A DNA stretch of 44,934 nucleotides, the filler included, from Jimgerdemannia flammicorona (Eukaryota): the NCBI GenBank assembly GCA_003990765.1. It is 2 parts of 2 records of this genome, joined end to end, with 100 filler letters (N's around TTAATTAATTAA, not from the genome) between each part and the next. Parts side by side here need not be neighbours in the genome. Positions count along the whole stretch, not along the records: positions 22,525 to 44,934 come from RBNJ01001285.1; 1 more part is not named here. One strand, 5' to 3'. The position numbers were made by a program, and so were the translations under genes. Below are positions 11,748 through 44,934 of the stretch, in pieces. The notes under the pieces were generated by a model that saw nothing but the letters and a program-made list of their open reading frames with translations, did not search any database and was not told the origin of the DNA. How positions within the stretch are numbered: position 1 is the first letter of the stretch; each line of letters opens with the position of its first letter.

Positions 11748-11815
11748 GCAACCCACATTAAAAGGAGGCACACAAGCTGCTTCCTCCACCTTCCCACGAC
11801 GCCCGGCCCGCCCAC

Positions 11816-16657: not shown

Positions 16658-19600
16658 ATGGCAGAGGTCATCTGGCACCCACAGGCAGAGGCTCTGCACA
16701 ACTTCATTTGCGACGCCTACACATCAACATCGCCCTCCATGGCGAAGGAGCTGCAGCAGGAACTGGAGAGATTCAAGCCAAGATTCTTGACACTTCTGGA
16801 CGACCCGCCAAGGAACGCAGATCATAGAGCAGAATTGCAGAGAGGTATATGGAAACTACCTATGATTTCCAATCCAAATATTTTTGCCGATTTTTTTTCC
16901 AACACGTACCGAAAACTAACCACAGCCCGCAACACGCGCAAATAGGCACAGTGAAAATCAACAAAGTCCAGCACCGCGTCAACGAAGGCTTCATCCACGA
17001 GACCAAACTCCTCTCTGACAACCTCGACATTGACGAATACCTCGCCGCGACCCTCCTCCAATATGGTACCCAACAGCGTTCTCGCTTCGATCGCCCCGCC
17101 TGCGAGACCGCCATCCTCCTCTACCATAGCGAGCGCGGTTATTTCCTCAACTGCATCGACCTCATCGTCAAGGGCGCCGCGAACGATTCCGTCCGCAATG
17201 ACATCCGCAGCGTCTTCGAACGCTTTGCCTCCGATCTCGTCGAAGCCGTCGTTCCACTCGGCCGCGGCTCCGCCGTGGGAAACGGCACCTTCGCCCAGAA
17301 GATCATGAAGACCATCGAGAACCTCAAGGCGCAGATCACATCGCTGACGGAATCGGGGGCCTTGGAATCCGCCATCGCGACGGCGGCGGCGGCGGCGGCG
17401 CCAAATGCGGGGGGAAGGCCAGGCAGACTAGGGGACGACATCACGAAGGACCGCATCAGGCGACTGAAGGAAGAGCGCAAGGAGCTCGCGCACATCCTCT
17501 TCCACATCTCGTACAACCGGCAGTTGGCCGCGAACGAGATTGTTATGCTGGCCGAGATGCTTCGGCGGGCCGACCTCACCGACGTCGTTACCATCTACTA
17601 CCTCGTCGCGCTCCTCGCGTCCATCGACAGTGTTCCCGAGCACGCCCTCGCCGGCAGCGCCGCGCCCGCACGTCACGACTCACTGGCGCTGAACAAAAGC
17701 TTTCTGAACCGGTTCAACGCGCTTATCACGCAACCCGACTGGTCCGTGCCGGCACTACGCGCCGTTATCACCCTGCAATGGACAATGTTTCTGGTGTTCG
17801 CGCTCAGTAAGCGGCCCTCGCTCCAGGAGGAGCTGCACTTTAAGTACGACAGGATCGAGCAGATGGTCGAGGTCAGCGTTATGAGCGACGCGTTCCAGTT
17901 CGCCACGCATTACGTGCTCGGATTTCGGGAGACCGAGTCGGAGAGGACGCTGATCGAGTCACTCACATTCTTGACCGCCGCTCCTCCCACAACGAACGGG
18001 AACGCCCCTACAGCGAACGGCACAGCCGCCCCCTCCCCCGCGGAAATTACAAAGGTCAGGCTGGAGGTGGACCCAGATTTCCATTGGTACATCATCCATC
18101 AGTTCGAGCTGTTCGTCACGTCGTTCATCGCCAAATTTGCCGCCTACCTGAAGCGCACCAAGAATCGAGAGGAGGACGCCGTCTTCTCGCAGCACCCGTC
18201 GCGGCCCGCCCTCGCGGGCGCCGCCGCGAACACGACCCCGCGCCGGGACCTCGAAAGCTTTTTCCTTCTCATCTCGACTCTCTACCAGGACCGCCCGAAC
18301 GCTGGGCTCAGCTTCTGGGAGGACCCCGAGGGCCGCCTCTTCGGCTTTCTCAGGTGGGCGATCGACGTGCGCGTGCCGAGCATGGTCCACGCTCTCTTCG
18401 ACATGCTGGGTTCTCTCGCTACGGGGAACTTGTGTGCCCAGCACACATACGATTTTTTAAACACCAACGGTGGACAGCGCACGCTCCAACCGACAACCGG
18501 CCATCACCACGTCGTCTCGTGGACCGCACTCTTCTCCGCCCTGGATTTCTACTCCACCGGACTGAAGAACGCGCCCCCCGTCGCCCCCCCCGCAGCCCAA
18601 GCTCCTGAAATTCCGCCGGACGAGATTAAGCTCTTGAGATCCTTCCTGCGGCTGCTCCGGCAGGTCGTCAAATACTCACCTACGGCCCGCATGACCCTCT
18701 ACGAGAATCAGCAGTACCGCGTCATGTTCATGCTCTTCAACCTACTCGGGTGCGCCATCCCCGTCGACCTCAAGGCCGCCCTGTTCGACACCATCGCCGC
18801 CTTCTGCGCCCCATCGGGCATCGCCGGAAACATCGGGGCCGAGCTCGCAAAGTCTGTTTGGGTCGTCCTCGAGCAGGCTCAAGTGCTTACCACCGTCAAG
18901 GGGAGCGTGCAACAGCTGCAATATACGCAACAGACGCAGCTCGGCGGAGCACCCGTGCAACAGCAGAGGGAGGAAGCCCAGGGGATATTGTTCGAACTGC
19001 AGGAGATCGAGTCCGCGAACGAGACCTATCCGGAGACGCTGGCGTTCGTGAACCTGCTCAACACACTCGTGCACGTCCCGTCAAAGAACGCCGCCCTGCG
19101 TTCGGGGTTCGGCGTCGGATCGCCCTCCATCCCCGAGAACCTGGGTGCCGGGTATCGCCCACCCGGCGGGATCATCCCATACGTTAGCTTCGTCATTGAT
19201 CATGTGCTGCTCAAAGCCAACACGCGTGGATACCTGCACCCTGCGGAGAAGTGGCGGGTGATTGAGACCTCGCTTAAACTCGTCGAGAAGTGCCTGATCG
19301 CGTACGACCTTAGCGGCCTCACCATTGACGCCTCCGTCGCCAACATCGCCGCACCGCAACAGCCCACCGCCGCGGGCGCTGCCGCGGTAGCCTCCGTCTC
19401 TTCAGGCACGCAAAGCCTGCTCTCCTATTACGTGCACCCGGGGTTCGAGATCATGTGCCGCTTGCTGTGCGGGTCGAAGCTTCTCGATGAGGTTTTCCGC
19501 ATCATTGGACTAGGCGTCGACGCAGTCAACGAAAACTCCATGAACACGGCGTTCTTCCGAAAGGCCGTGCTAAGGTGCTTGCGCATCGTGTCGCGTGTCA

Positions 19601-22325
19601 TACACATCCAGGAGGTCTTCCTAGACATCCTTATCCCAGGTATCACCGATAACCCGGGCCTCGTTGCGCCCGCTAAGCCAAGCCTGCCCCCGTCACTTGT
19701 CCAGATTGATCAGTTACTTCTATATAGGCAGACCGTCGTCATCCAGATAGCGCTGTTCGTGAATTGCACTGATGGAGAAGAGATTTGTCTGCTGGCCGTC
19801 AAGATTCTGGCAGCGCTGGCGGAGTCGCCGTACTTCAACGGGACTGAGAGATTGGTGGGCGGAGGAAGGATCAACCGGCTCGTCGGGATGCTGGATGCGA
19901 GCGACGAGTCATTGCGCATCTCCTACGGGTTCTTCGAAAGGTTGGAGGTAGACGAACCCGAGAAAGGGACGTCGCAGTACAACGAGCAGGACACGGACAC
20001 CATCCCTTTATTGCTCGAGAACCCTGGGGCGGAAGATCTGGACGTCGGGCAGCCAGGCATGGCGAACTCGGTCCGGCTGGCCATACTGCAGATCCTGCTC
20101 GACAACGTGAGCGGAACAAAGGTACCTCCAACCATTGCGCACTTCCTGCTCGGTTACAGCCTGCGCGGCAATATCTCGCAGACGGAAATCAAGGATCCGA
20201 CCTCCACCGATGCTAATATGTCGTGTCTGCATGTGATCCTCGACCTGCTCAGGGAGGGCATCCGGAAAGATGACGACCTGGACATAGATGGCGCAAGAGT
20301 GTCGCACGGTGTCCCGCTGTTTGTCAAGCATCCGACTCTGGCCGAGCGTTGCTTCCACCTCATCTACAAGCTGTGCTCCGACGCCAATACGTCGTCTCCG
20401 ACTATGCGCTACCTGCGCAACCGCGAGGACTTCTTCCATAGGCAGTTCAAGGCAATGCCCGTGCGGCTTGATCGGCGCGATAACGGGCTCGGTGGAGAGA
20501 TTATTGGAGCTGACGGCGTGAAATCCACGGTCGACTACGCGTCGTTGCTGGCCCAGCTTCACCAGCGTGCGTGGCTCATGAAGACAGTCGCGCTCGAGCT
20601 GCACCTTACCACCAACGCCGGACAGAGATCGCATACGCAGCGGCTACTCGAGCTCATGTTCAGCACCACTGAGACCGATCAGCCCGGCGATGAGGATGAT
20701 TCGGAGATGGATGCGGGGGAAAGCGATGTGGGGAACACGTATGGGAAGTCCAAGTTCCAGCAGCCGTTGATGAAAATGCTCGAGGTGTTGAACTCGTTGA
20801 ACTTTGTGTGGAAGGACTCGTTTGGGAGAGAGGAAATAGATTTGTATTATTTTGCCGGGATCAGTCTTGAGGCTTATTTGCGAGTCAACGAGCGGCTGTG
20901 TCACGTTTATGACATTCGCGCCATCTATGCCTTCTTGTTGTCGTGGCAGAACCAGTTAGAGAAGCAAGGGGCCATCACGACCGTGGGCCATCGCAACATC
21001 ATTAAAGGCGAGATCAAACGGATCCTGCAGCACTGCATCGCCGAGAACCACACCCGCGAACTGATTCACGCGCAGATCCACTGCCTCGAAGCATGGAAGC
21101 AGGTGGTGGAGATCACATTGGCCAAGTGCTTTGACCTGCTGGCCACGGAGGTGCGCGAGTCGATCCTGTACAACCTCATCTCGGCCCTCCTGCCCAAGAT
21201 CAACGACGAGGCCGCCCACGTCGTCATGGCCGAGAGCCTCAGCAGCGTCGTTCTCTCCCTCATGACCAAGCTACGTCAGGACCGCCATCGCCAGGCCGTG
21301 CTGCAGGCTGCCGTTGTCTCAGACGACAGCGCTGCCCTACGCCTGCCCACCGACAGGTTGCATGTCATCTTCAAGGGCCTGATCGAGGGCATCCAGAGGC
21401 CCGGCACTAGCGTATCTATGCGTGGGAACCTTTACACCGTCCTCGTCAACTACCTGCAGTACACCAACAACGAGACAGATCCCGTCGCCGTCGCGCTGCG
21501 CTCCCCATTCCTTGGCAGGGGGCCCGACCGGTCCATCCTCATGGGTGTCGAGGACTCGTATTCGTTCGATCCCTCGGCCTCCTTCGTCAGTGGTAACGGG
21601 AGCGGCCAGCGCGGTACTCTCGAGGCGGGCAATATCGCCATCGTCAATGTGGCCGGCGACAAGTTCTTCGATGTACTGTGTCGGGACGCGTCAGACGGGA
21701 ACGACGTCTGGAAGACGGCGGCGTTCACGGCCCTCGACGCGCTGAGCGTGCTCATGAGGCGTGAGAAGAATAACCGAGTGCTGCAGTATATGGTCAGGCG
21801 GAACTTCTTGAGACACTTTGTCGATATGGTCAAGAAGGACGATGAAGAGTTGCAACAGGTTTTGCAGCCGGATCCGGGTGAGTGGAGGGATTATTACCGA
21901 GTCATGTTGAACATACGTTGGAGACGCGGATCAACACGCTCACTGTTTTGCATCTCTTGTAGAATCTTTGAATGCATTGTACGTCTACGAATCGAAGATG
22001 TCCCTTTTCTTGCGGATCTCACAGAGGCGGGATGGTGCCGAGAAGCTTTTGGAGAATGGCGTGATTGAGATCCTCGCGCAGAGCCAGTTCTTGGATCAGC
22101 GTCCCGAGATCGATATGAGTCTCACAGGTATGGCATTGTCATGAGCACGGCCAAATATATGGAAACAGCTTGACTGAGGAATAGTCTTTACTCAATTAAT
22201 CAGGGGTTGATACGTTCCTGCCGCCGGCAACTGAGCGGTACCATCAGTTGTTGCTGCCTGCCTTACAGTTGATCGTCGGGATCCTAGCGACTATGGGCCA
22301 TGAAAATACTTCGGTGCTCAACAGA
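16658..22325 (+). CDS. NUP192: Nucleoporin Nup192/Nup205, 3'-partial (1802 codons visible); exons 16658-16844, 16946-21877, 21963-22127, 22204-22325
   Basis: LSDNLDIDEY, ELQEIESANETYPETLAFVNLL, IPENLGAGYRPPG, PTIAHFLLG and TMRYLRNREDFF are typical of the Nup192/205 family. GT-AG introns keep the frame. A donor at 22326 runs into the assembly gap. Confidence 0.93.
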
Positions 22326-22524: not shown

Positions 22525-24575
22525 CGCTCCAGGAGGTACGAGTTGAGGTTCTGTGGTGGCAGGTGGTTGACCGAGAGTAGTGGGGTTTGATAGATTAAGA
22601 GTAGGAGGTGGGTCGATGTTGGTCATATTAGATGTGCATATTATGATAATTATTGAACATGTTTAAGTAGGTATTGGGTGCGTAATGACATTTGTTGGTT
22701 TCATAAAGTCAGCTCACTAATATATTGGGGAGCGGACCATTAATGTAATATACAGGGCGGACGAGGTTAAAAAACGTTGGTATAATATATTTGAATAAAA
22801 ATAATAATAATTATAAACTGCAATGCTGTATCAAAATGGCATGTTTATCTTCCCTCTATTTGGGAGCGCAAAGGTTGATTCAATCCCAGGCGTGGCACCA
22901 CACTTATTGCTACAGAAAAACGATATGCCTGTGACTACCTAACATGCTTCGCCTCCTGACTCATTCACATTTTGTAACCATTGCAATGAGAATGACGTGT
23001 TCTTATGAATGGGGCGTTGAGGGTGGTTTTTTCCGAGCTATGGGCCATAATTATTATGTACCTCAGTGCACACTGGCATAGGTTCTCAAACCAGCTCACT
23101 TAGCTCCTTATCTATTACAATGACGTTTGCAATTTCATATATCGCGTTTCGAGTAAGGGATATGTTGGTACATTTTATTGTGGGTCAGAAGGGTGAGTGG
23201 AAAAGTATTCAGAGGAAAATTAGGGGGGGAGACGTAAGTCTTTTGACTTGTGGCGCTTGTGTGTGGATGTCGGGGAGAGGAGGATGTAAGTGAGAGGAGG
23301 ACAGGCGGGTCACACTGCCGGCTGAGTGAAATTGTTGGAACTAGGATGACGCGTTTTGTTAAGGAATTCGTTTATGGGTTTTCAGCTGAACTGGGTACAG
23401 GGGGATGCAGTTGCATCTATATGGATGTGTTTACTAAGGAATTCATTATGAAATACGTCTGGGAACGACTCACAGAACCTGAAAAGCGACCTGTTGTAAG
23501 GGGATTCCTGGGATATCCTTGAATGTACCTGCTTTCAAATTTCAGACTACTTCAACTCCCCTTTATTTCAATCCTAAGAATCTAGTATTTATATAAAATT
23601 TCCTTACTAAAATAATACAACTATATGGGGCTCCCACGTAAGTCTGTATATAAGCCCTTTGGCGCCCGAGATGTATTTCTGCAGGTCTCATCTTTGCGTA
23701 GAACCGTTTAAGAACCTCCTTCTCGATTCTAGACTATCGTTCCATGAGGAACGCGTCAATTTTGAGGCACTTGCTGAAAAGATTACAAGGGAATTTCACG
23801 TCTGACGACCTGTTCAATTGAGCACAAATCCAGCAAAATTGGTGCCTGGTATTTCAATCCAGAAAACTACAATTATGGCATATAATTTATTCATACAACA
23901 TATACAAATGTGAAAATGAATATAGTGAATGTGAATCTATTGTGTTTTTAATTACCCGCAACTTGATAAAATATATTCTCTTGAACTTTGTAATACTATA
24001 ATATAGAGCTTTACTTATTCTAAAACTCAATTGAGTATCTGTCTGAAATGTTCAATATATTAGTCAATCTCACCTTCATCTATATTATTCTGATTATTCC
24101 TATAAGCAATTATAATAAAATTAATAAGTAATATCAGTTTCAATAAAAGTTATTATAGCAAAGTTTAAATCATTTAAACTTTAATCTTCTTAAGCCCTAC
24201 TGAAACTATAGTTATACATCTCTCTAAACTTAACAAGACCACTTTTATCTCTCTAAGCTCTACTATTTACATTTCTTTTTTATAATCTCTCAAAAGTAAA
24301 ATTTATTTGATCAATATATTTTTAGTATGAGATATATAAGAATTATACTTCTAAAGAGAACTTGCAGCTTTTAATTAATAAAGATAAAATAAATGTTGAA
24401 AAATAAAAATTTAATAAGTTTTATGAAAAATATTCTATAGAAAATATTTTTATAATTTATCTAAAATTGAGTTTGAAAATTGATTAAATATAATTCTGAT
24501 TTAGTTTTATTAGATTAGATATAATTTTTATTTAAAACTAATTTTAAATTTGAGTTAAATAAAACTAACATATAT

Positions 24576-26953
24576 TGTGACGTACACAATTGATAATGGA
24601 GTACCAGTGACTGCTAAGATCAGATGACATAATGGCATGACAATCAAATAGACAGCCTGACCCATTAGGTGATCATCCCAAAAGAAGACAAGAGGATCCG
24701 AGCCAAAATGAAGACCACGTTATTTAAGGAACCATACTCCGCCTCAGGGATTGGCACCAAAGAACCAAGTATCTACCACACAATGCCTCCCATTCGCCGA
24801 ACCAACCAGACCTCCTGCCGCTCTACCCCTTTGCCTGGCCCAAAGACCCTGATCTTTGAAGCTATCAAGAAGGCCATCTGGCGCCTGGATACTTCTGAAC
24901 ACTTGAACTTCTACACCAAGAACCTTGGACACTTCATCAACTACTGGTATATAATGACCCAATAGCTCAAAGACACTACCGAATGAATGACCCTCTGGCA
25001 CGACTATGAAATCAGACACCGCCTTCGCAATGAGACTCTAGAAGGCAACCAGGAAGACCTCATTGCCGAAATGTTAACCACCAGCCGGCTAATCAAGAGA
25101 GCCCTCCGTGTCCACCAAATCTTCCGCCATATTCCCTGGGCTATAGCACACTTGCAAGGAGTAACAGCTGGTAGCCTCTCCTGCCTATCAACTGAAGATG
25201 CTGACTGGATAGAATCTGAAATAGCCAACTCTATTAGCAGCAACCACATCGCTGTAGGAAGCCAACAAACTGAACCCACTCAGCCAGGTTCCCACACTAC
25301 CCCACTCTGAGACAACCATCAAGGTCACCTAATGAGTCTTATGGAGATATTTGAAGGACTGCCCATCACTATAGAGGCATCTGTTGGAGCTACCCCAACC
25401 ACCCACCACCTTGTCAGCCACAATTCACATCTCATCATTTGGAAACCGAATCAAGAAGAAGCCCAAGAAGTTCCTGTCTTTGAAGAGGAGGCCCAAGAAC
25501 TCCAAGACCCTGCTCCTGAAGAAACCCCCTCTGACACTGAAACTGATGAGTCTTCAGAAGAAGAAGAGGAGCAACAGAGAGTCTACCAGTCCTCTGTCCA
25601 CATTCAAGCTGTTCAAGGGTTGAAGAATGTTGTTGAAGATGACTGGCCACTTTTCTATCCCCTCACCTCTTGGCCGGCACTTCCCCCTTTTGAGGAGAGA
25701 TATGATGAAGAAGAAATCGCAACCCAGCAAGATTTGCCCACCACGGATAAAGGGTACTATTCCCTCTAGAGTACCGCCCATCAGCCATGAGAACCCAGCT
25801 TTTAGTCAGCAAGTCCGTTTTCAGTGTTGCCACCCTCCACAACCATTTCTGGCAACAATCATCGTATCATGTCAGCTCATCCGAATCCAGCATTGCTATC
25901 CAGTGCAACCATTTTCAGCGTTTTGTCAGCAAGTCAGCAACATCTGTTTTCAGCATTGCCACTCTCTACAACCATTTCTGGCAACAATCAGCACTCCTGT
26001 CTACTCATCTGAATCCAGTGTTGCTATCCCCTACAACCTAATCCATAGTAAACAATAGCCTGCACCTTGCATTGTGCAAGCCAATAGCATAGCAAAGTTC
26101 ACCACAATGTAGTATACCTTAGCCTTAGTCGCGCCCCCCCCCCCCCCCCATAGCTAGCAAACTTGTATAAATAACTCATATCCTTAGAGTGAATAAACCT
26201 CAGTCAACTGGTTTTGAGAAAAGAAACCACTGCCTCCAAGAGACCGGATAAATTCTGAGAACAAGATAACAACCTAGAGCAACAGATCGTGCGGAAGTTT
26301 GAGTTAAAGAATTTTCTCTTGCCATAGAAAGAAAATGTTACCCGACCGCCACTATTCAACCACCATTCGAGACCCAAGACCCAGCCAAGGATTCAAGACC
26401 ATGATCGCCGCGCATTCAGACTGCCATTCAGACCACACATTCAGACTGCCATTCAAGATTCAAGACCCTGGCAATACAGCTAAAGAACCCAAGGAACCCA
26501 AGTTACCTAGCCAAAAGATATAAGACCGCTACCAAAGACCCAAATGACTACCAGGAACCTTTCAAGTTAACAAGTCAAGACGGATGAGCGAGCCATCAAC
26601 CTCCATTTTCCCGACCTACTGCGCCACAAACCATTTAAAGTCAAGACCATCGCCGAGTTTGCCGCTAAGTTAATCACCACCAGGAAACTTAGCCAGCATA
26701 ATCGCCACCCTTATCCACTAAACAATTGAGCCACCATCGTTGAACAACTGAACGACCCCACCATCGACATCCTGAGCCCTCCAACGAACAATCGAAGTCC
26801 TACTATTATCAATTACTGCATGAATCGAACGACCTGTCATGTGACCATCGACCCACGAATGTCACCAATGCCTTCAGTTATACATCGCGGGCTTCACCAA
26901 GTGGCACATTGAGCCATGCCAGAAGCAACTCGAGATACAAACCAAATACCACA
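24576..26953 (+). mobile_element. Solo LTR (2378 bp), family A, flanked by ATATAT direct repeats
   Basis: TGTGA...CCACA ends, ATATAT at 24570-24575 and 26954-26959, TATAAATA 26166, AATAAA 26192. Homologous end to end with 40710-42971. Confidence 0.88.
24708..25769 (+). pseudogene. LTR(U3)-encoded 353-codon ORF, copy 1, with three premature stops
   Basis: ORF pieces 24669, 24987 and 25332 share one frame. The stops TAG 24963, TGA 24984 and TGA 25308 are CAG, CGA and CGG in copy 2. Confidence 0.8.
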
Positions 26954-27479
26954 ATATATAGATCAGATTAGATTATAGAATACTATTTATATATTATAAA
27001 AACTGAAAGTTAAAAAGAATTTAAGTTAATATTTAATTTAATATTTTAATATATATATAAATTTATATAAAATAATATTTAGACTTTTTATTTAAGTATT
27101 CTATATAGATAGATCTTTATTTTTATATAAATTACTATCTTTTTCTTAACTTGCTTTATACTATTATATATATTAGTTAGTTCTAGAAAAGATTTATACT
27201 TTTAGAAAATTTATAGTAAACTAATTATTTTTTTAAATAGTTTATTATGAAATAAATTTAATTTAAATATTATCCAAACTAAGATAAGATATATATAAAT
27301 AAAATTATATTTAGTTTAAGATTAAATTTAATAATAGATAAAATCAATTTAGAAATAACTTTATATTATAAATAAATCTAACTTTAATTTTTGATAAATG
27401 AAATAAATAATAATTTTCAAATAATTAAATTTATTAATAAAAATTATAATCTTATATAACTAAATTAAAATATATTCAG

Positions 27480-27940
27480 ATAGTGAGATAGCTGAATAGT
27501 GAAAAGAGAAGAAGATGGGATGCTTTGAGGAAATAGTTAGTAGAATATATAAATAATAAGTAGCTTACTATTGAATAAGTATTAGTAATATAGGTAGAGT
27601 TGACTAGTACTGACTATATATATTTGAGGATAGAAGGCAGATAATTTTGAAAAAAAGAATAGTATAGTGAAAGATATTGATGGTGGATATTTTTTTCAGC
27701 TAGCAGCAGGAGTGGGTCCTTAGAGAGGCTGCCATCACTGCCTGATATTGGGGATTTATAAAAAGAGTAATAATTGAGTTAAGGTAGTTAAAGATCTGAT
27801 TATTTTTAAAAGAGAAAAAGTGAAGAAGAGATAGTGTATTAAGAGAGATAAGGTGGAGTTAGGTTGGAGCTATAATATATTATAAGAAGTATATAATTAT
27901 TATAGATTAGTTAAAAATAAAAAATAAAATAAAATAAAAT
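27480..27940 (+). mobile_element. Decayed LINE 3'-end fragment with A-rich tail
   Basis: Reverse-complement similarity to ~29980-30340, followed by an A-rich tail at 27913-27940. Confidence 0.55.
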
Positions 27941-27948
27941 ATATTTAT

Positions 27949-29063
27949 TATAATAAGTAAATAACTCAGTATAGTTAGATGATATAAATACTCAGTATAA
28001 TATAGTTATCTATATCTAGTTACTTATATATATCACTATTTATATAATTAGCCAAAGATACTAAATTAGATTTATTAATCTATATTCTAAGGATATCTAT
28101 ATCTATATCTATTAGATATATATACTTATATCTATCAAACATACCTATATCTAGTAGATAAATCTGGTCACCTCTTTCTCTAAATAGCAGTACTATGTAT
28201 TCTATAGTTAGCTAGATAGCAATCAGATAGAAACTACAATTGTATAAAATATTCCAGAGATAAGAGTAAATAAACCTCAGTCTAAAAAGTTCAAAAGTAA
28301 AAGTCGATTATCTGGTATATTTAGAAAAAATATCTATAATAAGTCTCTTAATTCAGAAAGAATTATAATACTTAGGAGATATGTCTACTAATGAGCTACT
28401 GAGCTTTACCTTATTCTTACTCTAGTCTTCTTTCTAATATAAAAAAATCTACTACTTATAGCCAGTCTAGTATAAGATACATCTTTGTAGTAAATCAATT
28501 TGTATAAATAAAGCAATCTTTGATATAACTTTGAGAAGTCTATTATAAATTAGAATACTTACTAGACTAAGTCTGAAGAACATTATTAAGTAATCTACTA
28601 CTTAAGAAAAAACTACTATTTTTAAGTAAATTACTAATTCAGAAAGAATCTAAGTAAACAAAGTTATCTGCCAAATCTGCTGCTTAAGAAAAAATTACTA
28701 TTTTTAAATAAACTGCTAATTCAGTGAGAATTTGCATTACTTACTAAATTATCAACTTACTGTTGTATATGAAAGTCTGTCAGATTACTTATATAATATC
28801 AGATTATTATATAAAAATCATATATATATATAAACTATTCTTGCTATATATATAATTTACTCAAAAAGAAACCTACTGAAATTGCTGAATTATTACTATA
28901 TCTAAGAATCTATTTTAATAAGAAAATTGTCAGAATTATCTATATTATATAAATTTATACTAATATCTATTGAACATTTTATTGTTTTTTGATAAAGTAA
29001 CTGAGGGCTTAAGTCAAACTATATAATAGCCCTTTATATCCCATTTGCATAGCCCTACTATCA
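27949..29063 (+). mobile_element. Hypermutated LTR-like element, family B (~1.1 kb)
   Basis: Aligns with the reverse complement of 39759-40709, e.g. GAACATTTTATTGTTTTTTGATAAAGTAACTGAGGGCTTAAGTCAAACTA vs GAACATTTTGTTGCTTTTTGACAAAGTAACTGGGGGCTCAAGCCAAACTA. Contains TGTATAAAAT..AATAAACCTCAGTC, like the family A TATA/polyA block. Confidence 0.65.
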
Positions 29064-29480
29064 TTAGTTATATCTGGATTTTTTTCTAATCTACTATCAC
29101 ACTACCATCAGCTATTATATATCTGTCTCTAGTAATAGTTCTGCTAGCCTCTATATCTGTCTTGCTCAGTATCAACTCTCCAGTTCTCTTACTACTAATA
29201 TGTTTCTCTCTCTAGACTTACTGCTTTAAGTATCTCTAGGTCAACTCTCTACTTTGTGAGTAAAACTCATTGGTCTCTGCTCTCTACCACTCATACCTGG
29301 CAACTGACTTCTACTATACTCTCTCTGTCCACTTATATCACCAAAAATCACATTTCTATACTATAGTTCTTTCTGACATATTATCAGTAGAAGACCCCAG
29401 TTCTATCCAATTCAGTATATCTATTAGAGCTATTATATATTATTATATTACTAATACCTATTCTTCAAAAAGTATATAAA
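29064..29480 (-). mobile_element. Decayed fragment homologous to the 5' portion of the adjacent LINE-like element
   Basis: Same-orientation similarity to ~33745-34170 (TATATCTGGATTTTTTT..ATCTACTAT; CTCCAG[T/C]TCTCTTA). Confidence 0.55.
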
Positions 29481-29867
29481 AAGAGATAAAAGATATTTAT
29501 ATTATATAAATTATTAGAGAAAGGTATTATTATTTAAACTTTACTTAATAGTAACATTATTATTTTCAATATATTTTTTTGTTTAAATTCTATATAGAAT
29601 TCTCAAATATATTAGAAAATTATATAATATAGATAAATAATTAATTAATTATAATTATAAAAAAGTATACATACTTATAGATATGAATAAAAATATTTAA
29701 CTCATATTCCATTATAATATAATTAAAATTTTATCTATATTATACTCAAGATAGATATAGATATTATAGTTTATATGTATATAATCTATTTTATAGTATT
29801 TACTACTATTCTTGACTTTATTTAATAAAATTAATTAATAATATAATTACTATATAGCTAATAGCTA

Positions 29868-29916
<49 letters not shown>

Positions 29917-32900
29917 TTAAAGCACTAGGTCTCTTTATTAATCAATATATAATTAATACATAATCCTCATACTACACCAGTAGTCTCAACTCAACCCAAC
30001 CATCTTCTACTCTAATATACTCTCTTCTCTTTACTCTTTATATCTTTAAAACTATCAGATTATTAATCACCACAACCCTCCTACTACTTCTCTCATATAT
30101 CTCTTTCATCAGCCATCTATAACAATCTCCTTGAGGGCCCTACCCCCTTCATCAGTCTGATAGAACATCTACTATCAATCTCTCTCACCTTGTCATCTTT
30201 GAATATATATTACTATTATTCAGTCAACCTCACTCATATTACCAATGTCTACTCAATAATAAGTTACTTATTACCAACATAGTTTACCAACCACTCTCTT
30301 AAGTTATCCCATCTCTCTCCTTCACCACTATCTCACTACTATATCTCTAGATAATCTCTAACTATTACTTATAGGTTACTAAGTATATTATACCCTCTCA
30401 ATCAATATTCTGGTATCTATATAATTCTTCTCTCCTATCTGATATTATAATAATTCTTGTGCTCAAAAGCCCCTCCTTCTATCAAGTATCCCAATCTAAA
30501 GTTTAATATAATATTTCTTTTTAAGATATACCACCATACTACTTAGAACCTTAGTAGAAGCCACTGCCATACCTCAGCATTTTAAGATCAGACTTTGACA
30601 CAGTCTTATACCTTACTAATATCTGTGAACTACCAGCTCATTAATAATAAATTCTGTCTTACCCCCTATTGATACTCAATGCTAGCACTAATATTAAAGT
30701 CTAATACTGATAAATTATTTAATTGAAGCCTATATTACTTCTATATCACAGGTCTCTATTATATCTCTCTCTTATTAACTCACTAATATAGATCAATACA
30801 GTGAGCCCATTCTACTATGTATCTCTTATCAAAATTCTCTATACTATAAGTGACAACTGCCTCTCAGTCTAATTATTGAAAATAAATTATCAGAAGATTC
30901 TCTAGAAGAGAACCATATCTCTTAGATCTTCTATATCAAAGACAAATACTCTCTACTCTATAATGTGACAGCTCTCTTCAACCACTAAGCTATAAGATAA
31001 TATAATCTATTTAGAAAGTCTGTATATATATCTTCTCCTTCTTCTTCAATACTCACTTCAACTTCTCAACTTCTAGCAGAACTCACCCTAGTCTCTAATT
31101 CTCTACATCCTTCTGTACCAATAACTCTGCCTACTTCAGCTATAATATCTCTATTCTATAGGAGATCCACCTTACTCACCACCTTTACTATACCCCTTTA
31201 AACTTTCTAGCCTTACTTCAATATAACTTAGCAGCTTTTTTCAACTTTATTTAGTAGACTCCAACTAGGAATCTCTTACTTTTCTAGTATTTAATCTTTG
31301 TCTCAATGTCTGCTATTTATATATTTTACAACTTCTCTCCTTTAACAATAAAGAATAGATATACTAATATCCAGGTCTATTACCACCCTCTCCAAGCTGA
31401 CCACACCCCAACAGTCTCTAATGATCAGACTAAGAGTACTATTCTATCTCCAAGGTCTCTCAAATATTCCATCCTCAGTAATTGACTTCCAGTATTAATA
31501 TATCCTTATCTCAAATTTATTTACTCAATGAGTATAAATCTTCTAGTCACTCTATACTATTCTGTTAGTATCTATAATAAACTTAGACTCTTCACTTCCT
31601 CCCAAATATCCAAACTATCACTATAGCCTACAGTACTCCTCTATCTGTCATTTCTGTCTATTAGTATATTTTACACTATGTTAAAGTCCTCTCTCAGTAT
31701 ATCTATACCAGCTTTAGCAATAGCTCTATACTCTAGAAGCTCATTCAGCTACTCTATACAATCACCTCTCACTACTGAGTAACAGCAAGAACCTACTACA
31801 ACTAGATCTCACTCTGGCCTTTGCCACTCTCCTCATACTAAGTAATATCTCTATCCCCCAATCTCACACAGTTCCCCCTTATCTTTCTACAGTAGAATCT
31901 CCACCTTATCTCTCCAAATAGTCTCACTACTCCATTTACTTATCTATATCTATATATCTAATTTCTCCTCACAGTACAAATCCTGCACCAAAATAAGATC
32001 TGCCTCAAAGCTTTAGAGCTAAGCAAAAATATTTCAATATCTTACAGAATCCCTCAGATTATTCACATTCAGTAAGAAATTGTTAGTTATACTATTTATC
32101 AGAAAATAATATTTTATAATATCTCTATTCTCTTCATAATTCTATACTTATTTCCTCTCTAGCTATATCTAGTTTATACTCTATATTAACTTCAACATTC
32201 TCAATCTTCTTAGCCTCCAAACCAGCCAGTATCTCTACTATCTCCTCATTATTCTTAGCCTTTATCAACTTCTTATACTTCTCACACACTGTCTGTCAGA
32301 TCAATAATCTATGCTACTATTTCTACCAGAAAGCAGTATACTCCTCAGTAACTACTACCAGATTAGCCTCTCTTTTCACATCTATCTCATAGCTCTCAGC
32401 CTTCAATATTACTATCAGAATCTCAGACATCAGCCTTTTCACCATATCTATACTACTCAATACTCTCACTCCAGTCTTCTTACTGATAATATATTAAAGG
32501 TCTAACTCTCTCAGCTTATCTATAGCCAACTCTCTTCACACTGAAACTATTCAGTAAGTATCTCTTAGTCTACTCTCAACTAGAGTCACCAGTCTCTCTT
32601 CTATCAATATAGTAGCTTTAGTTCCAGTACTAGCTGTCTTATCTTACTTCTCCTGTAGAATATCATATAATTTATCCTTTCTTACTCTGACCATCTGTTC
32701 TCTCTTCTATGTCTAGTACTCCAAACCTGACTCTATATATGCCCCTCATCTCTATATCCTCTATACTATACTTCTTATGAACATTGGCTCACACTAGGTG
32801 TTTTTTCTTCTCATTTCATTCTTTAAGTATATTATTATTAAAAAGCTACTAATCTCTTACCTTCTTATTCAATACTGTAGCCTCTCCCTTCTTCTCCTCT

Positions 32901-34170
32901 CAACTTATAGTCTAGTCACTCTTCTTTGCTTCTTTCATTCACTACTTCCTTACCTATCTCATTATCCTCTCCATTAAACTATCAAGTAGATCTCTCTATC
33001 TCTTTCACTTCTGAGCCTTCTACCATATTACTTTATTTATATAAATCTTCTTTTTATTCTTTACTTCTAAATATATTAATGCCAAATAAGCCCACCATAC
33101 TTCTGTACAATGCTCTATAACTCTACTGAGATCTTCCAGAGCTTTCTGCAAATTCTCTTCTCCTTTTCACTTTTTTTTTTATCTATATTATCTTATAAAC
33201 AAAGTCATCTCACTTCAATACTATAGGCCATTCAGAGCTTTCTCAGTAGTGTCCTTCCAAGCAGATCAGAGCCTAATATTCACATCTTCTATTCTGAATA
33301 TTGTTCTCTCTCATACTCTAAATCTAATATTAATCACCTTTCTATACTTCTTTATTATCTCCTCAACTCTTCTCTTTATATATCTCAAGAATTATCACTA
33401 TAGATATCTCCTTCACCAGAAGCTATATAACTCTTAGATTCTATTTCAGATATCTAGCCATTGATACTACTACTTTACCAACTGACAGTCCAGTTTTCAA
33501 GATCTTCTCCAATGGTCTCACTTTCTCAAACTCTATCTCAACTCCTTTAAGTCTATACCAGAACTTTGCTCAGATAACTTCAGCAAATTAGTTTATAAGT
33601 AGACCCAAAACTATCTTAGCAGTCATTATAATCTTTACAAAATATAAAGTAATAGCAAATTTTGAAATCAACTTCTTGAGTAATAGAGCTACTATTAACC
33701 CTATTATATATTAGCCAGATTTTCTATCCTCATGTTTGCCCTACTATTAGCTATTATATCTGGATTTTTTTTTTTCAGATCTACTATTACTCTATCATAA
33801 GAAGTTACTTTTTGGACCCCAGTAACTGTCTCTCTATCTCCTATGCCTGTCTTATCAAGCAATGTCCCTCCAGCTCTCTTAGTACTTAACTTTTTCTTCT
33901 CTCTCAGCTTGCTATTTTGAATATCTCCAGACCAACTACTATCTTTTATCTTATCTATAAAGCTTATCTGGTCTAACTTTCTATAAATCATATCTGGCCA
34001 TTAACTTTCTCCAACTCTCTTCTAGCTATCAGTATTACCAAAGAAGCCTATCTTTATATTATATTCTCTTCTGATATCTTGTCAGTCAAATACTCCAGGT
34101 CTATCTAACCCAGTATTATTGTTAGATCTCTCATTTATTGATATATTATAAATAACTTTTTTCTAAAATC
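29868..34170 (-). mobile_element. Heavily eroded non-LTR retrotransposon (LINE, APE + RT, possibly RTE-like)
   Basis: (TAA)n tail on the minus strand at 29868-29916. Residual motifs: LR*GY (for LRQGC) near 31503-31517, RLNTRK near 31285, LKKKEKIY near 31030-31050, LDYKL (SDH-like) near 32905. Purine-rich coding strand, almost no CpG. Confidence 0.55.
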
Positions 34171-39758: not shown

Positions 39759-40709
39759 TGTAATGAGCCCAGCTCAATGGGGGCAAATTACAAGGTTGGG
39801 GGGTTGATGTAGTTTGGCTTGAGCCCCCAGTTACTTTGTCAAAAAGCAACAAAATGTTCTAAGATTCCTTGTTGGTGTTTAGTGGTATAATAGTCAATCT
39901 GGATACAACGGTCGATATGTGTGTCGATTTCCTTATTGGGATGGTTCTTGGGTGTAGTGGCGATTTGTGTGTGGCACGGGCGTTCTGCTAATTTAGCGGT
40001 TTCCTTCTTGGGTGGCAGTGATCTCCAAAAGTATGTGACAATCTCTTGTGTAGCGCGACGATCTATGTGAGGCGATTTCTGCATGACGATCTTGGTGGTA
40101 TTCCTTATGCGGATTGAGCTAATAACTCGATTTGGCGAATAACTCGGTGTGGCATGGATTCTCCTAAATTGGCGGCTCTCTGGGAAATAACTCGGATGAT
40201 TCGGATAACTCGGATAACTCGGATGTCGCGGATTCTTCCTAAATCGGCGGGCTTCTGGGAAATAACTCGGATGGCGCGGATAACTCGGGTGACGTGGATT
40301 CTTCCTGAATCGGCTCTTCTGGGAATATCGGATAACTTGATAACTCAGGTAGCTCGGATGGCAGATTCTTGGCAAGTTACGTCAAGACTGGCTTCGTTTG
40401 GGTGGAGTTATGTTGATGACTGGCTCTACTGTGAAGTTGCGTCAGCAGACTGGTGACAAGATTCTTATGCGGGCTCTCTGGGAATGGCGGATTCTTGAAA
40501 ACAGCAGCTTATTCCTTAAGCGGCGGATTACTCAAATGGCGGCAAAGTTCTTCACTCGAACTTTAGGCAGCAAAATACTTAGATTCTTTAGGCTTATTTG
40601 GCAAGCGCTCAAAAAATCGTGATCAATGTTGACTATCGAATTTGTTAAAATCACTTGACTAGTCTTGAATAGTCATTTTTCCATAGCGAGAATCAAAATC
40701 CACATATAT
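39759..40709 (-). mobile_element. LTR-like element, family B, 3' part; interrupted by the family A insertion
   Basis: The minus strand ends ...CATTACA. Internal tandem repeats (ATAACTCGGAT; GGATTCTTCCTAAATCGGCGG) at 40135-40370. Homologous to 28430-29063 but CpG-rich. Confidence 0.65.
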
Positions 40710-40841
40710 TGTGATGTACACAATTGACAATAGAGTACTGGTGACTGCCAAGATCAGACAACATAATGGCGTGACAATCAAATAGACAGCCTGACCCATT
40801 AGGTGATCATCCCAAAAGAAGACAAGATGATCTGAGCCAAA

Positions 40842-41903
40842 ATGAAGACCACGTTATTTAAGGAACCATACTCCGCCTCAAGGATCGGCACCAAAGAACC
40901 AAGTACCCACCACACAATGCCTCCCATTCGCCGAACCAACCAGACCTCCCGCTGCTCTACCCCTTTGCCAGGCCCAAAGACCCTGATCTTTGAAGCTATC
41001 AAGAAGGCCATCTGGCACCCAGATACTTCCGAACACTTGAACTTCTATACTGAGGACCTTGGACACTTCATCAACTACCAGTATATAATGACCCAACAGC
41101 TCAAAGACACTACTGAACGAATGACCCTCTGGTATGACTATGAAATCGGACACCGCCTTTGCAATGAGACTCAAGAAGGTGACCAGGAAGACCTCATTGC
41201 CAAAATGTTAACCACCAGCTGACTAATCAAGAGAGCCCTCTGTGTCCATTAAATCTTCCGCCATATTCCCTGGGCTATAGCACACTTGCAAGGAGTAACA
41301 GCTGGCAGCCTCTCCCACCTTTCAACTGAAGATGCTGACTGGATAGAATCTGAAGTAGCCAATGCTAATGGCAGCAACTGCATCGCCATAGGAAGCCAAC
41401 AAACCGAACCTACTCAGCCAGGTTTCCACACCACCCCACTCCGGGACAACCATCAAGGTCACCTAATGAGCCTTATGGAGATATTTGAAGGACCGCCCAT
41501 CACTATAGAGGCACCCGTTGGAGCTACCCCAACCACCCACCACCCTGTCAGCCACAATTCACACCTCATCATTTGGGAACTGAATCAAGAAGAAGCTCAA
41601 GAAGTTCCTGTCTTTGAAGAGGAGGCCCAAGAACTCCAAGACCCTGCCCCTGAAGAAACCCCCTCTGAGACTGAAACTGACGAGCCTTCAGAAGAAGAAG
41701 AGGAGCAACAGAGAGTTTACCAGTCCTCTGTCTGCATTCAAGCTATTCAAGGGTCGGAGAATGTTGTTGAAGATGACTGGCCACTTTTCTACCCCCTCAC
41801 CTCTTGGCCGGCGCTTCCCCCCTTTGAGGAGAGATATGATGAAGAAGAAATCACAACTCAGCAAGATTTGCCCACCATGGACGAAGGGTACTATTCCCTC
41901 TAG
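40842..41903 (+). pseudogene. LTR(U3)-encoded 353-codon ORF, copy 2, with two premature stops
   Basis: Same 1062-nt length as copy 1. The stops TGA 41220 and TAA 41250 are CGG and CAA in copy 1. Confidence 0.8.
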
Positions 41904-42974
41904 AAGTACCGCCCATTAGCCATGAGAACCCAGCTTTTGCCAGCAAGTCCATTTCCAGCGTTGCTACCCAGTACCACCATTTTCAACATTTTTGTCAGCA
42001 GGTCCGAATTCAGCATTGCCACCCTCCACAACCGCTTCTGGCAACAATCATCGTATCATATCAGCCCATCTGAATCCAGCATTGCTACCCAGCACAACCA
42101 TTTTCAGCATTTTGTCAGCAAGTCCAAATCCAGTGTTGCTACCCAGTACCACCATTTTCAGCAAGTCAGCAACACTCATTTTCAGCGTTGCCACCCTCTA
42201 CAACTGTTTCTGGCAACAATCAGCACTCCTGCCTGCTCATCCGAATCCAGTATTGCTATCCCCTACAACCCAATCCATAGTAAACAAATAGCCTGCACCT
42301 CGCATCATGCAAGCCAATAGCATAGCAAAGTTTGCCACAATGTAGTATACCTTAGCCTTAGTCACACCCCCCCCCCCTATAGCTAGCAAACTTGTATAAA
42401 TAACCCATATTCTTAGAGTGAATAAACCTCAGTCAGTTCTAGTTTACAAAGAAACCACTGCCTCCAAGAGACCGGATAAATTCTGAGATCAAGATAACTA
42501 GAGCAATGATCACTCGAGGTTTGAGTTAAAGAATTTTCTCTTGCCACAGAAAGAAAGAAAACATTACAAGACCACTGCCACGAAAAAGGATTCAAGACCA
42601 GACCGCCATTCGGACCGCCATTTGAGACCCAAGACCCAGCCAAGGATTCAAGACCAAACCGCCATTTGGAATGCGCATTCAGACCACCATTCGAGATTCA
42701 AGACCCCGGAAACCCAAGGATACCCAGCCAAAGGATACAAGACAGCTGCCAAAGACCTGAACAACCGCCAGAAACCTAACAAGTTAAGATGGACGAGCGA
42801 GCCGTCAACCTCCGTTTTCCCGCTATTTATTACCGCATGAATCGAATGAGCCGATCATGTGATCAACAACCTGCAAATGTCACCAACACATTCAGTTATC
42901 CATCGCGCGCTTCACCAGTGGCACACATTGAGCTGTGCAGTCGAAGTTCATTATACATAACCAACGCCACATTT

Positions 42975-42992
42975 TGGGGGCTCAACTGGGAA
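42975..42992 (+). promoter_or_regulatory. Primer-binding site, tRNA-Pro type
   Basis: TGGGGGCTCAACTGGGAA lies 3 nt after the LTR end and resembles the MLV tRNA-Pro PBS TGGGGGCTCGTCCGGGAT. Confidence 0.75.
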
Positions 42993-43865
42993 AGTTTTTA
43001 AAAGACTTGACCATTTGGCTCAAGAACCCAGCTATCTACAGTAGAGAACTTAGCAGGACCAAGTCAGCAACCAAACCAGGGGCAGCAACAGCCCTCCTCA
43101 GCAGAAAAGAAAGCCCACACCCTTGTCAGAACAGTAGTCAGGACCCTATTCAACACCAGTAGCCAGAAAACCAAATCAGAAGAAAGAAGTGACCCAGATT
43201 ATGGTTTGACTTCAAGAGAAAGGAGACGACTCAGAGGACAACCAGAACCGCCCCTTCAGATCCAAGACTTAGGCCAAGAAGAAGAAGAGGATATCTCCGA
43301 GGAGTATCAGACCCTTATCCATAGAAAGAACTCAGACAGAAGTGACTACATAACTACTGTTGTTACTCGAGTCACTCTACTAGACCGAGTATACTTTGAA
43401 ACATCAGAGGGAGAAGAGGACTACCATCCATATCAACCAGAGCAAGACGATGATTGGGGATCAGACCATCAAAGGGACGAATTCAACCTATACTATTATC
43501 CAGACAGCGACACTGACCCACAACAAGGTGAACAAGACTTCACTACTTCACAACAGCAAGGGGCAGACAAACTCACTATCAGCTATATCAGTCCACTCCC
43601 ACCATCAGTTGCTCGAACTTCAGTACCCTGGTCACTCACACCTCGTCACTATTACCAGTCTATCAGAAGATCTCCACCACTACCCAGGACTTCAACCCCA
43701 GCATTAATTAGAAGAGCCAGATTACCCTCACCCTCACCAAGACACCGCCCTCTGCCAGTACCACTAGATCATCAAGTACTAGCACCACTACCTTTCCCAT
43801 CACCCCGAGGATCCGCCAGACCCCCTACCCCTGAACAATACTCAGATAGTGAAGATGGGCCAGAC

Positions 43866-44934
43866 ATGAGCTACCTTCAGAAGTTCCATGGTGCAGACAA
43901 TGAAGATATCAAGGAATTCTTTGGAGAAATTGAAGTTCAAGCAGCTGCCAAACAATGGGATGCTGCAAGAAAACTCAGAATTGTAGAGTCACTCCTGAGA
44001 GGACCAGCCCTACAGAGGTATAATCAAGCCAAGCAAGCCGGAGGAGAAATCCATACAGAGGAACTGAATGATGGCCTTCAACCTGATAGAAACCATGTAG
44101 CAAGGTACATGATTCACAAAGCCTGGCTCTATGCTCAGTTCAATGGATTCAAGTGCCAACAAGAAGCACAAGAGGCATTGACCTATATGAGCCAAGCTGC
44201 CAATGAAACTCCCAAGAGTTTCTACTATCAGATTCAAGCTCAAATGATCAAGGCAAACCTTCAACCAGCAGTCCAACTGGCCCTAGCCTCAACTACCTTC
44301 CTCAATGGCTTATACCCAGAACTCCGAAGGCAAGTTATCAGGATGGGATATCGAAACATTGAACAGCAAGTTGCTGGAGCACAAGGATGTTGGGAAGCAG
44401 ATTATAGACCAGTACAACAAGTACAAGGCTATCCTGAGCCAATCCGAGCCAAAACCCCAAGGACCCAAGGAACAACTATGGAGCAAGAGAATGCCTTCCT
44501 CAGAGCCCAGATAGCCAACTATGAGAACAGACCAGCACCCACAAATCTGACTCCATTCAGGCAACCACAGCAGCAGCCACCATCAAGAGTTCAAGAAGAC
44601 CCTATGACAATGCTCACCAAGCTAATGAAGGACCTGGCCATCGCGGTTGCCCAGCTGAACAACCAAAGTAGAAGACAACAAGACTACCATCGTGATAACA
44701 GACCAGACTACCAGCAACAAGACAACAGAGGTCCTGCCCCTGCACTACCAGCTGCAACTACAGCCTCATCAGCGACTGGTTCCTATGGTCCCACCTGCTT
44801 CAACTGTGGAAATCAAGGCCACATCCAGAGGAATTATCCAAGGAACCAATCCACCCAGTCCAATGACAGAAATGTCAACCTCTTTCAGGTAGATGAAGAG
44901 ACTCAGGAGATGGAAGAAGAAGCAGCCTGGCTCC
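43866..44934 (+). CDS. gag: Retrotransposon Gag (3'-partial); frame open from 43011
   Basis: MSYLQKFHGADNEDIKEFF, LLRGPA, Q..NETPKSFY, FLNGLYPELR and the knuckle CFNCGNQGHIQRNY (44796-44837). No stop up to the window edge, which is why the ORF track misses it. Confidence 0.85.
   Translation, partial: MSYLQKFHGADNEDIKEFFGEIEVQAAAKQWDAARKLRIVESLLRGPALQRYNQAKQAGGEIHTEELNDGLQPDRNHVARYMIHKAWLYAQFNGFKCQQEAQEALTYMSQAANETPKSFYYQIQAQMIKANLQPAVQLALASTTFLNGLYPELRRQVIRMGYRNIEQQVAGAQGCWEADYRPVQQVQGYPEPIRAKTPRTQGTTMEQENAFLRAQIANYENRPAPTNLTPFRQPQQQPPSRVQEDPMTMLTKLMKDLAIAVAQLNNQSRRQQDYHRDNRPDYQQQDNRGPAPALPAATTASSATGSYGPTCFNCGNQGHIQRNYPRNQSTQSNDRNVNLFQVDEETQEMEEEAAWL

Follow-up and report, generated by a model that had tools for sequence, protein, structure and literature searches.

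The window analysed here, a stretch of 44,934 nt (filler included) from Jimgerdemannia flammicorona (assembly GCA_003990765.1), holds two copies, A and B, of a long terminal repeat (LTR) of a retrotransposon, and each copy has a protein-coding frame inside it. With a probability of roughly three in four, we regard this frame as a real, conserved gene embedded in the LTR of the retrotransposon. It would be an accessory gene in sense orientation within the U3 region of an unusually long (2.3 kb) LTR. Because the gene lies inside U3, the 5', 3' and solo LTRs of the family all carry it. This agrees with a preliminary description of the locus, which had placed a coding gene in U3 upstream of the LTR TATA box in both copies; copy A is an instance of a solo LTR that carries the gene. 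The features of the locus are collected in Table 1.

Structure of the two LTR copies

Both LTR copies start with TGTG and end with CACA, they lie in the same orientation, and the homology between them extends over exactly the two intervals of Table 1. In a blastn search of window positions 1-40500 with LTR B, copy A was the sole match. Copy B is the 5' LTR of an element that contains a primer-binding site (PBS)-like sequence, TGGGGGCTCAACTGGGAA, and a gag frame. We take TGGGGGCTCAACTGGGAA to resemble PBSs complementary to tRNA-Pro; no tRNA genes were found in the window, so there is no window tRNA to match against it. Near the end of the gag frame, a CCHC knuckle matches Pfam zf-CCHC with an E value of 0.0028 and 18.1 bits, under the cut-off of 20.8. 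Retrotrans_gag gave no Pfam match in this frame even at E<=10, and Atlas feature matches of 0.92-0.94 to CCHC, Retrotrans_gag and Ty3_capsid clusters serve as a lead only.

Copy A is assigned as a solo LTR because no gag-like sequence follows it and because ATATAT stands on both of its flanks (24570-24575 and 26954-26959). In particular, neither blastn nor a purine/pyrimidine-collapsed 28-mer search of window positions 1-40500 gave any match to gag-like sequence. The surroundings of copy A are AT-rich, which leaves the ATATAT flanks with low information content, and the left flank of copy B has the same ACATATAT, which lowers the weight of ATATAT as a target-site duplication.

The frame is placed in U3 because TATAAATA, the presumed promoter of the genomic RNA, and AATAAA, the presumed LTR poly(A) signal, both lie downstream of it within one LTR unit. 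Specifically, the stop codon at 41903 precedes TATAAATA by 492 nt, and the start of the gene is 132-207 nt into the LTR, depending on which start codon is taken. The four imperfect direct repeats of ~54 nt between the gene and the LTR TATA box are the site of indels between the copies, and they appear, by inference from the sequence, to be enhancer-like. Tandem Repeats Finder reported no tandem repeats in 40500-43300; these imperfect repeats were found by a separate repeat search.

Table 1. Coordinates of the features of the window discussed in the text
Feature	Position	Strand	Details
LTR copy A	24576-26953	+	2378 nt; solo LTR within AT-rich DNA
353-codon frame, copy A	24708-25769	+	1062 nt; stops at codons 86 (TAG), 93 (TGA) and 201 (TGA)
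Probable coding sequence, copy A	24783-25769	+	start at the Met26 counterpart
LTR copy B	40710-42971	+	2262 nt; 5' LTR; element continues past the window end
353-codon frame, copy B	40842-41903	+	1062 nt; stops at codons 127 (TGA) and 137 (TAA)
TATA-like TTATTTAAGG	40854-40863	+	54-63 nt upstream of ATG 40917; identical in copy A; candidate promoter
Probable coding sequence, copy B	40917-41903	+	328 codons from Met26 (MPPIRR...)
Four imperfect ~54-nt direct repeats	41935-42163	+	after the gene and ahead of the LTR TATA box; 67-91% identical to the reference copy
TATAAATA	42395-42402	+	presumed genomic RNA promoter; kept in copy A
AATAAA	42421-42426	+	presumed LTR poly(A) signal; kept in copy A
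PBS-like TGGGGGCTCAACTGGGAA	42975-42992	+	18 nt, TGG-initiated; 3 nt past the end of LTR B
gag frame	43206-44933	+	576 codons from the first start codon; open from 43011 to the window end
Nup192/Nup205 gene	16828-22068	+	uninterrupted, 1746 codons
Frame upstream of LTR B	39839-40381	-	178-180 codons; repeated RHPSYP/NPRHPSY units

The frame has the properties of a coding gene

As the preliminary description had stated, the frame is of equal length in the two LTR copies and the indels lie elsewhere. Over the 1194 nt that begin with the LTR and end with the stop codon, the alignment of the copies has no gap events, compared with 13 in the next ~920 aligned nt. The same holds for its statement that the five premature stops fall at different codons and derive from CAG, CAA, CGA or CGG: the opposite copy has the sense codons CAG, CGA and CGG at codons 86, 93 and 201, and CGG and CAA at codons 127 and 137. 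In line with this, P0003, an intact homologue, has the residues Q, R, R, Q and R at the stop columns 86, 93, 127, 137 and 201, respectively. Counting the terminal one, the reading frame has 3-4 stops, versus 8-24 in the other five frames. Its GC content by codon position is 0.58/0.40/0.52, a pattern that recurs in gag and in the host Nup192 gene, and its A- and C-rich strand composition is that of the rest of the element.

The 353-codon frame of the preliminary description is present in both copies, but the gene itself is probably shorter. The real start is probably 40917, giving 328 codons, because every homologue that reaches the N-terminus (P0003, P0005, P0006, P0013, P0015 and the open reading frame (ORF) of the metagenome contig L001) begins with MP(P/A) at the column of the window's Met26. 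The 25 codons upstream of Met26 are probably a 5' leader.

An unnamed protein family with intact, diverged members

Homologues were sought by a word-indexed search of 5.8 billion clusters, by an exhaustive profile search of 1.84 billion representatives and by a profile search of the 5.8-billion set. The word-indexed search returned P0003, an intact protein of 325 aa with 77% identity over 88% of the query (E 4e-159), and also P0004. P0003 is labelled 'hypothetical protein' and lies on a 1116-nt contig, and its length differences from the window protein are in-frame only. At E<=0.001, the profile searches gave 9 proteins among the 1.84 billion representatives and 14 clusters in the 5.8-billion set; these 14 are all unnamed or labelled 'hypothetical protein', and all lie on contigs of 567-4848 nt, a size typical of repeats in assemblies. 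A metagenome scan with P0005 (85 matches, 1 locus) led to L001, a 1535-nt contig with an open 291-codon frame of the family, and a scan with query A2 gave 589 pattern matches, none of which was confirmed.

The intact homologues span 214-342 aa at 29-77% identity and have in common the motifs LGHF, W.(D/E)YEIGH.L, HQ(I/V)FRH.P and F.GP.I. The family consists of three subfamilies at ~30% mutual identity plus two outliers. In the tails of P0008, P0013, P0014, P0016, P0005 and the L001 ORF, which come from two distant subfamilies, the motif D-L-I-x-F-(E/S) occurs together with a near-C-terminal (I/V)LNF(L/T), both set among acidic runs with serines. These two motifs are absent from the window subfamily, and presumably resemble short linear interaction or activation motifs.

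No known family was matched by these proteins. Pfam gave no families for P0001, P0002, P0005, P0013 and the L001 ORF, and PHROGs gave none for P0003, P0013 and the L001 ORF. The best match among PDB sequences was an unrelated GTPase (E 0.07), Atlas gave no usable match for the protein, and hhalign of the family against gag returned a probability of 1%. Relatives on viral contigs numbered zero in three scans, with P0003, P0013 and P0005 as queries. A longer or fused form of the family was found in none of 7999 candidates, which is weak evidence. The preliminary description had pointed to a family expanded in Glomeromycotina; such a link is unsupported, with only the 14 clusters found among 5.8 billion. 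The host genes of the window have 56-62% GC, with a GC content at third codon positions of 0.76; to our knowledge, Glomeromycotina genomes are AT-rich, unlike this composition.

Decay of the window copies and selection on the family

The two copies differ at 79 of the 1062 positions of the frame, and 73 of these differences are transitions. Within the coding sequence, 41 of 69 transitions fall at CpG and 28 elsewhere, while copy B has 36 C/G sites in CpG versus 453 others. CpG observed/expected is 0.22-0.31 in the element (40710-44933) versus 1.16 in the host Nup192 gene (16828-22068). This pattern is characteristic of the deamination of methylated CpG. The mutation type read in the preliminary description did not hold up, and the CpG bias of the transitions rules out classical CpA-targeted repeat-induced point mutation. 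Judged by their sequence, both window copies are dead, and the differences between them are mostly post-insertion decay by CpG-biased C>T and G>A changes.

The ratio dN/dS, to which the preliminary description had looked for a sign of selection, is 0.37 for the window pair (NG86). In 1000 neutral simulations with the same CpG-biased spectrum, the median was 0.42 with a 5-95% range of 0.30-0.60, and 28% of the simulations lay at or below the observed value; the number of stops in the window copies likewise matches the neutral decay prediction. The observed ratio is within the neutral range, and selection is shown instead by the intact diverged homologues, because a frame that has diverged to ~30% identity would have been closed by stops had the protein not been under selection.

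LTR boundaries and copies in metagenome contigs

Contigs were obtained from four runs, X1-X4, comprising three soil-metagenome runs and one other run (698, 47, 43 and 38 contigs). In all four runs, the LTR, the gene and gag are represented by contigs of 80-99% likeness. By sequence, the LTR family exists as many diverged copies in other samples. Places with A/T in copy B and G/C in the contigs are roughly two times as frequent as the opposite case (104 vs 56 in X1), which makes copy B the more decayed of the two. Among the indels listed for the four runs, none of the 12 is within the gene, and the first stands at 41905.

The contigs also bear on the ends of the LTR. Three different upstream sequences abut the start base 40710/24576, namely the two window flanks and an X2 contig. 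The latter, of 330 nt, matches 40710-41015, and the 24 unmatched letters that precede the match end in a purine run, which may correspond to the polypurine tract before a 3' LTR, as far as this single contig from another sample goes. At the other end, an X3 contig departs at ~42965 into AT-rich sequence, which fits the right LTR boundary.

Predicted structure of the protein

Two AlphaFold models of proteins from different subfamilies, P0003 and the L001 ORF, have the same helix order. The mean predicted local distance difference test score (pLDDT) is 59 for P0003 and 66 for the L001 ORF, with 70-97 over residues ~20-160 of the latter. In the L001 model, helices at ~21-34, 50-86, 92-99, 103-116, 120-125, 131-135, 139-153 and 176-188 are followed by a small beta piece and a disordered tail. 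The product is predicted to begin with a short N-terminus of basic character, to continue as an acidic all-helical domain of ~150 residues and a small beta piece, and to end in a disordered acidic-aromatic tail. The window protein has a net charge of +4 over residues 1-25, -11 over residues 26-165 and -27 over the last 98 residues, and a hydrophobic segment is absent from it. The helical N-terminal domain and acidic tail that the preliminary description had read from the sequence agree with both models and with the charge of the tail. The tails of all subfamilies contain short hydrophobic-acidic motifs, which we take to look like acidic activation domains.

In searches for a related fold, the VIA-align wide comparison gave a best Z of 5.1 for the P0003 model (3o2q_A, 64 aligned residues, root-mean-square deviation 3.0) and of 3.8 for the L001 model. 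Foldseek against the PDB gave best E values of 0.47 and 0.73 for the two models, and BFVD had no matches at E<=0.001 (best E 0.1). Going by these models, all of the fold matches are in the range of chance helical matches, and the protein would represent a new fold. A complex prediction for gag residues 200-576 with P0003 residues 1-235 scored 0.00, which is uninformative either way.

Possible modes of expression

The probable start codon is preceded by the TATA-like TTATTTAAGG in the window, and TATAAAAG stands ~72 nt upstream of the ATG in L001. A transcription unit of its own is favoured for the gene because a TATA-like box stands ahead of the conserved ATG in the window as well as in L001; we consider it possible, at somewhat under even odds, that the gene is such a unit and that even a solo LTR could express it. 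In that case, transcription would begin in the first 200 nt of the LTR, behind the TTATTTAAGG box, and the transcript would end at the LTR AATAAA, giving an mRNA of roughly 1.5 kb.

Alternatively, the LTR gene may be expressed in the retroviral way, as the 3'-terminal ORF of the genomic RNA and by means of a spliced subgenomic mRNA, in which case the solo and 5' copies would be silent. Retroviral accessory genes at such a 3' position (env, nef, sag) are spliced. The gene would lie at the 3' end of the genomic RNA, downstream of the purine-rich X2 junction. A branch-point-like CTGAC with a TAG behind it, which would place the splice acceptor near 40806, occurs at ~40795-40806; it precedes either ATG and does not differ between the copies. 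On the other hand, inspection by eye revealed no evident GTRNGT-type fungal donor in the leader (42972-43205), and the TATA-like boxes ahead of the ATG in two lineages speak for a promoter close to the gene. We regard retroviral expression as rather unlikely, yet as an explanation to be reckoned with.

Possible roles of the protein

As to function, a transactivator of the Tas type is the model that we favour by analogy. Foamy-virus Tas is a transactivator of ~300 aa with an acidic activation domain and its own internal promoter. The LTR protein might accordingly be imagined as a nuclear, trans-acting adaptor or co-activator by which the element increases transcription from its own LTR; for this specific role our confidence is low. 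Such an activity would amount to positive feedback like that of foamy-virus Tas or of Tax of human T-lymphotropic virus, and the ~54-nt repeats would be its natural target.

By extension, and just as tentatively, the LTR may be a self-contained cassette, in which the promoter within each LTR, solo ones included, would drive a trans-acting factor with a new fold, as a kind of 'public good'. Dead remnants would then supply a protein that activates intact elements or shields them from CpG-methylation silencing, and this protein would be encoded in the part of the retrotransposon that survives deletion.

A different role, in the particle or at integration, would make the protein a cofactor that binds Gag or integrase, or an acidic decoy of histones or silencing proteins. 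The extreme acidity and the aromatic-acidic tail would suit basic partners such as nucleocapsid, integrase or histones, and the CpG depletion of 0.22-0.31 suggests an element under methylation-type silencing, against which an accessory factor could work. The fold searches gave no match to chaperones or to known inhibitors, which counts against this role, and our confidence in it is likewise low.

Other explanations of the frame

A further explanation is that a captured host gene was transduced into the LTR as a passenger with no role in the life cycle of the element. The protein has no likeness to gag, by hhalign, or to any retroelement family, and transduced ORFs are known in plant LTR retrotransposons from the available part of PMC7264820. 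In that source, however, such ORFs occur in one or a few copies, whereas both LTRs of the window have the gene, as do contigs of all four runs. Moreover, all three subfamilies keep the frame open at ~30% identity, all 14 clusters lie on short contigs, as repeats assemble, and the strand composition of the gene equals that of the element; that no longer or host-like form was met among the 7999 candidates adds weak evidence in the same direction. A passenger is therefore improbable.

Still less credible is that the true LTR is short and the frame internal, so that the two copies in the window would represent 3' ends of elements cut short to the same extent. The window holds only one LTR of the gag-bearing element, and L001 offers some encouragement for this explanation. 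Directly after the stop codon of its gene stands a purine run, AAGGAGGGAGGA, and ~30 nt further on comes a 35-nt stretch like the first 45 nt of the window LTR. The compared regions, L001:1249-1317 and window 40719-40752, share GTGACTGCCAAG, with a local score of 26 versus a null maximum of 25 in 100 shuffles, which is marginal. Against a short LTR, the unit of copy B that contains the gene lies upstream of the PBS-like site and gag, which is a position for a 5' LTR only. Furthermore, copy A, copy B and the X2 contig share a start base behind three different upstream sequences, and it is very unlikely that truncations arising independently would hit one base. In addition, the TATA box and AATAAA lie downstream of the gene within one unit. 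We accordingly give this explanation very little credence.

A chance open frame in repeat DNA could be suspected from the stops in both window copies and the lack of a Pfam or fold match, but we hold it to be negligible in view of the intact homologues and the open L001 frame on independent DNA, the length differences that are in-frame only, and the confidently predicted helical domain.

Several points weigh against our interpretation of the frame as a conserved, LTR-embedded gene, or limit parts of it. The window is without a full-length element, with only one LTR of the gag-bearing element present, and it ends within gag at 44934, so that the gene in both LTRs of one element, as well as pol, is unseen. 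The gag frame itself is weakly recognised, with Pfam below the cut-off and Atlas features as only a lead. One X4 contig (depth 3.3) skips 98 nt within the gene (41592-41691), which means that deleted variants exist. The two window copies alone give no selection signal. As regards position, the purine run after the stop codon hints that the L001 gene could lie just outside, that is upstream of, the LTR; the LTR-borne position is established by the sequences for the window subfamily and not for the distant subfamilies. The position of the gene may have shifted between just upstream of the LTR, in the L001 lineage, and inside the LTR, in the window lineage. As regards expression and function, short motifs are the basis on which the promoter, poly(A) use and translation are proposed, the acidic helical domain of the models does not favour direct DNA binding, and no fold or family match in Pfam, PHROGs, PDB, Atlas or BFVD backs any function.

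Surroundings of the element

Outside the element, the window contains several host genes. The product of the Nup192/Nup205 gene matches, among PDB sequences, vertebrate Nup205 (E 3e-84) better than Chaetomium Nup192 (3e-44) or yeast Nup192 (2e-22). Together with the composition of the host genes, this is consistent with a fungal host outside the Ascomycota, although it is no proof of one, and the host does not resemble Glomeromycotina. The other host genes encode Snf7/CHMP2, an ankyrin protein and an inositol polyphosphate kinase (11762-13075). The two in-frame halves of the kinase gene are joined by a putative 72-nt intron at 12395-12466 (GTAACT...CTAAAT...CAG), short and of fungal type.

Right after solo LTR A, positions 27001-34000 are very AT-rich (GC 0.19-0.35), with a GC skew down to -0.57 in 30000-34000. 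The three frames of at least 90 aa in this block have no Pfam match, nor has any of the 8 frames compared with Pfam between 22100 and 40700. The block may be a heavily decayed older element. At 403-1334, two adjacent direct-repeat pairs (197 and 217 nt, 85-86% identity) have a spacing of 520-521 nt; taken together they form a ~520-nt tandem duplication within AT-rich DNA. The frame just upstream of LTR B is without a Pfam match and is probably no gene but the translation of a tandem repeat.

Comparison with known systems and implications

Protein genes within an LTR are known otherwise mainly from a few retroviruses. The closest positional analogue would be sag of mouse mammary tumour virus (MMTV), followed by nef and the 3' genes of foamy viruses. 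MMTV sag is, like the window gene, a whole sense gene (~320 codons) inside the U3 of an unusually long LTR, and every LTR carries a copy of it. MMTV is a vertebrate retrovirus, and its Sag product is a membrane glycoprotein of type II. Unlike Sag, the window protein is very acidic, has no hydrophobic segment and has no BFVD matches at E<=0.001; its element is without env in view, and its host is probably a fungus. The genes nef and foamy-virus tas/bet are likewise 3' accessory genes that reach into the LTR, but they only overlap it, whereas the window gene lies wholly inside. No homology to Sag, Nef, Tas or Bet was found in Pfam, PDB sequences, BFVD or PDB folds.

Among fungal elements, the frame brtn of Botrytis is antisense and located near the 3' LTR, and is not known to lie inside it. 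It is an additional ORF of the Boty/BcGypsy1 elements and resembles the window gene in being a family-specific extra ORF of unknown function in a fungal element of Ty3/gypsy type, according to the available part of PMC8365987. In plants, the accessible text of PMC7264820 (Vicient and Casacuberta 2020) describes additional ORFs (aORFs) of LTR retrotransposons that are conserved, of unknown function, and present besides gag-pol in most copies of a family; they lie between pol and the 3' LTR, in either orientation. Nowhere does that accessible text use the wording 'in the LTR', 'within the LTR' or 'inside the LTR'. The plant aORFs belong to the internal region, whereas the window ORF lies within the repeated LTR unit in both copies, so its placement differs from the plant type. 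The consulted portions of a fungal survey (PMC3248453) and of studies on Botrytis (PMC8365987), the crapaud element of Podospora (PMC10787394) and Candida (PMC4139406) describe no separate gene inside an LTR. In Tca5, again from partial text, the main ORF may start within the LTR, which differs from a separate LTR-embedded gene. As far as the accessible portions of the open-access literature extend, no earlier description of an LTR-internal gene in a fungal retrotransposon came to light.

LTRs are treated as non-coding control regions and are masked by annotation pipelines, and with a gene in U3, solo LTRs can be coding. Solo LTRs far outnumber full elements and are usually dismissed. The element described here would be a retrotransposon outside the vertebrate retroviruses with a retrovirus-like accessory gene, and its unnamed protein family, which lacks a recognisable fold, may offer an entry point to how such elements handle host transcription and silencing.

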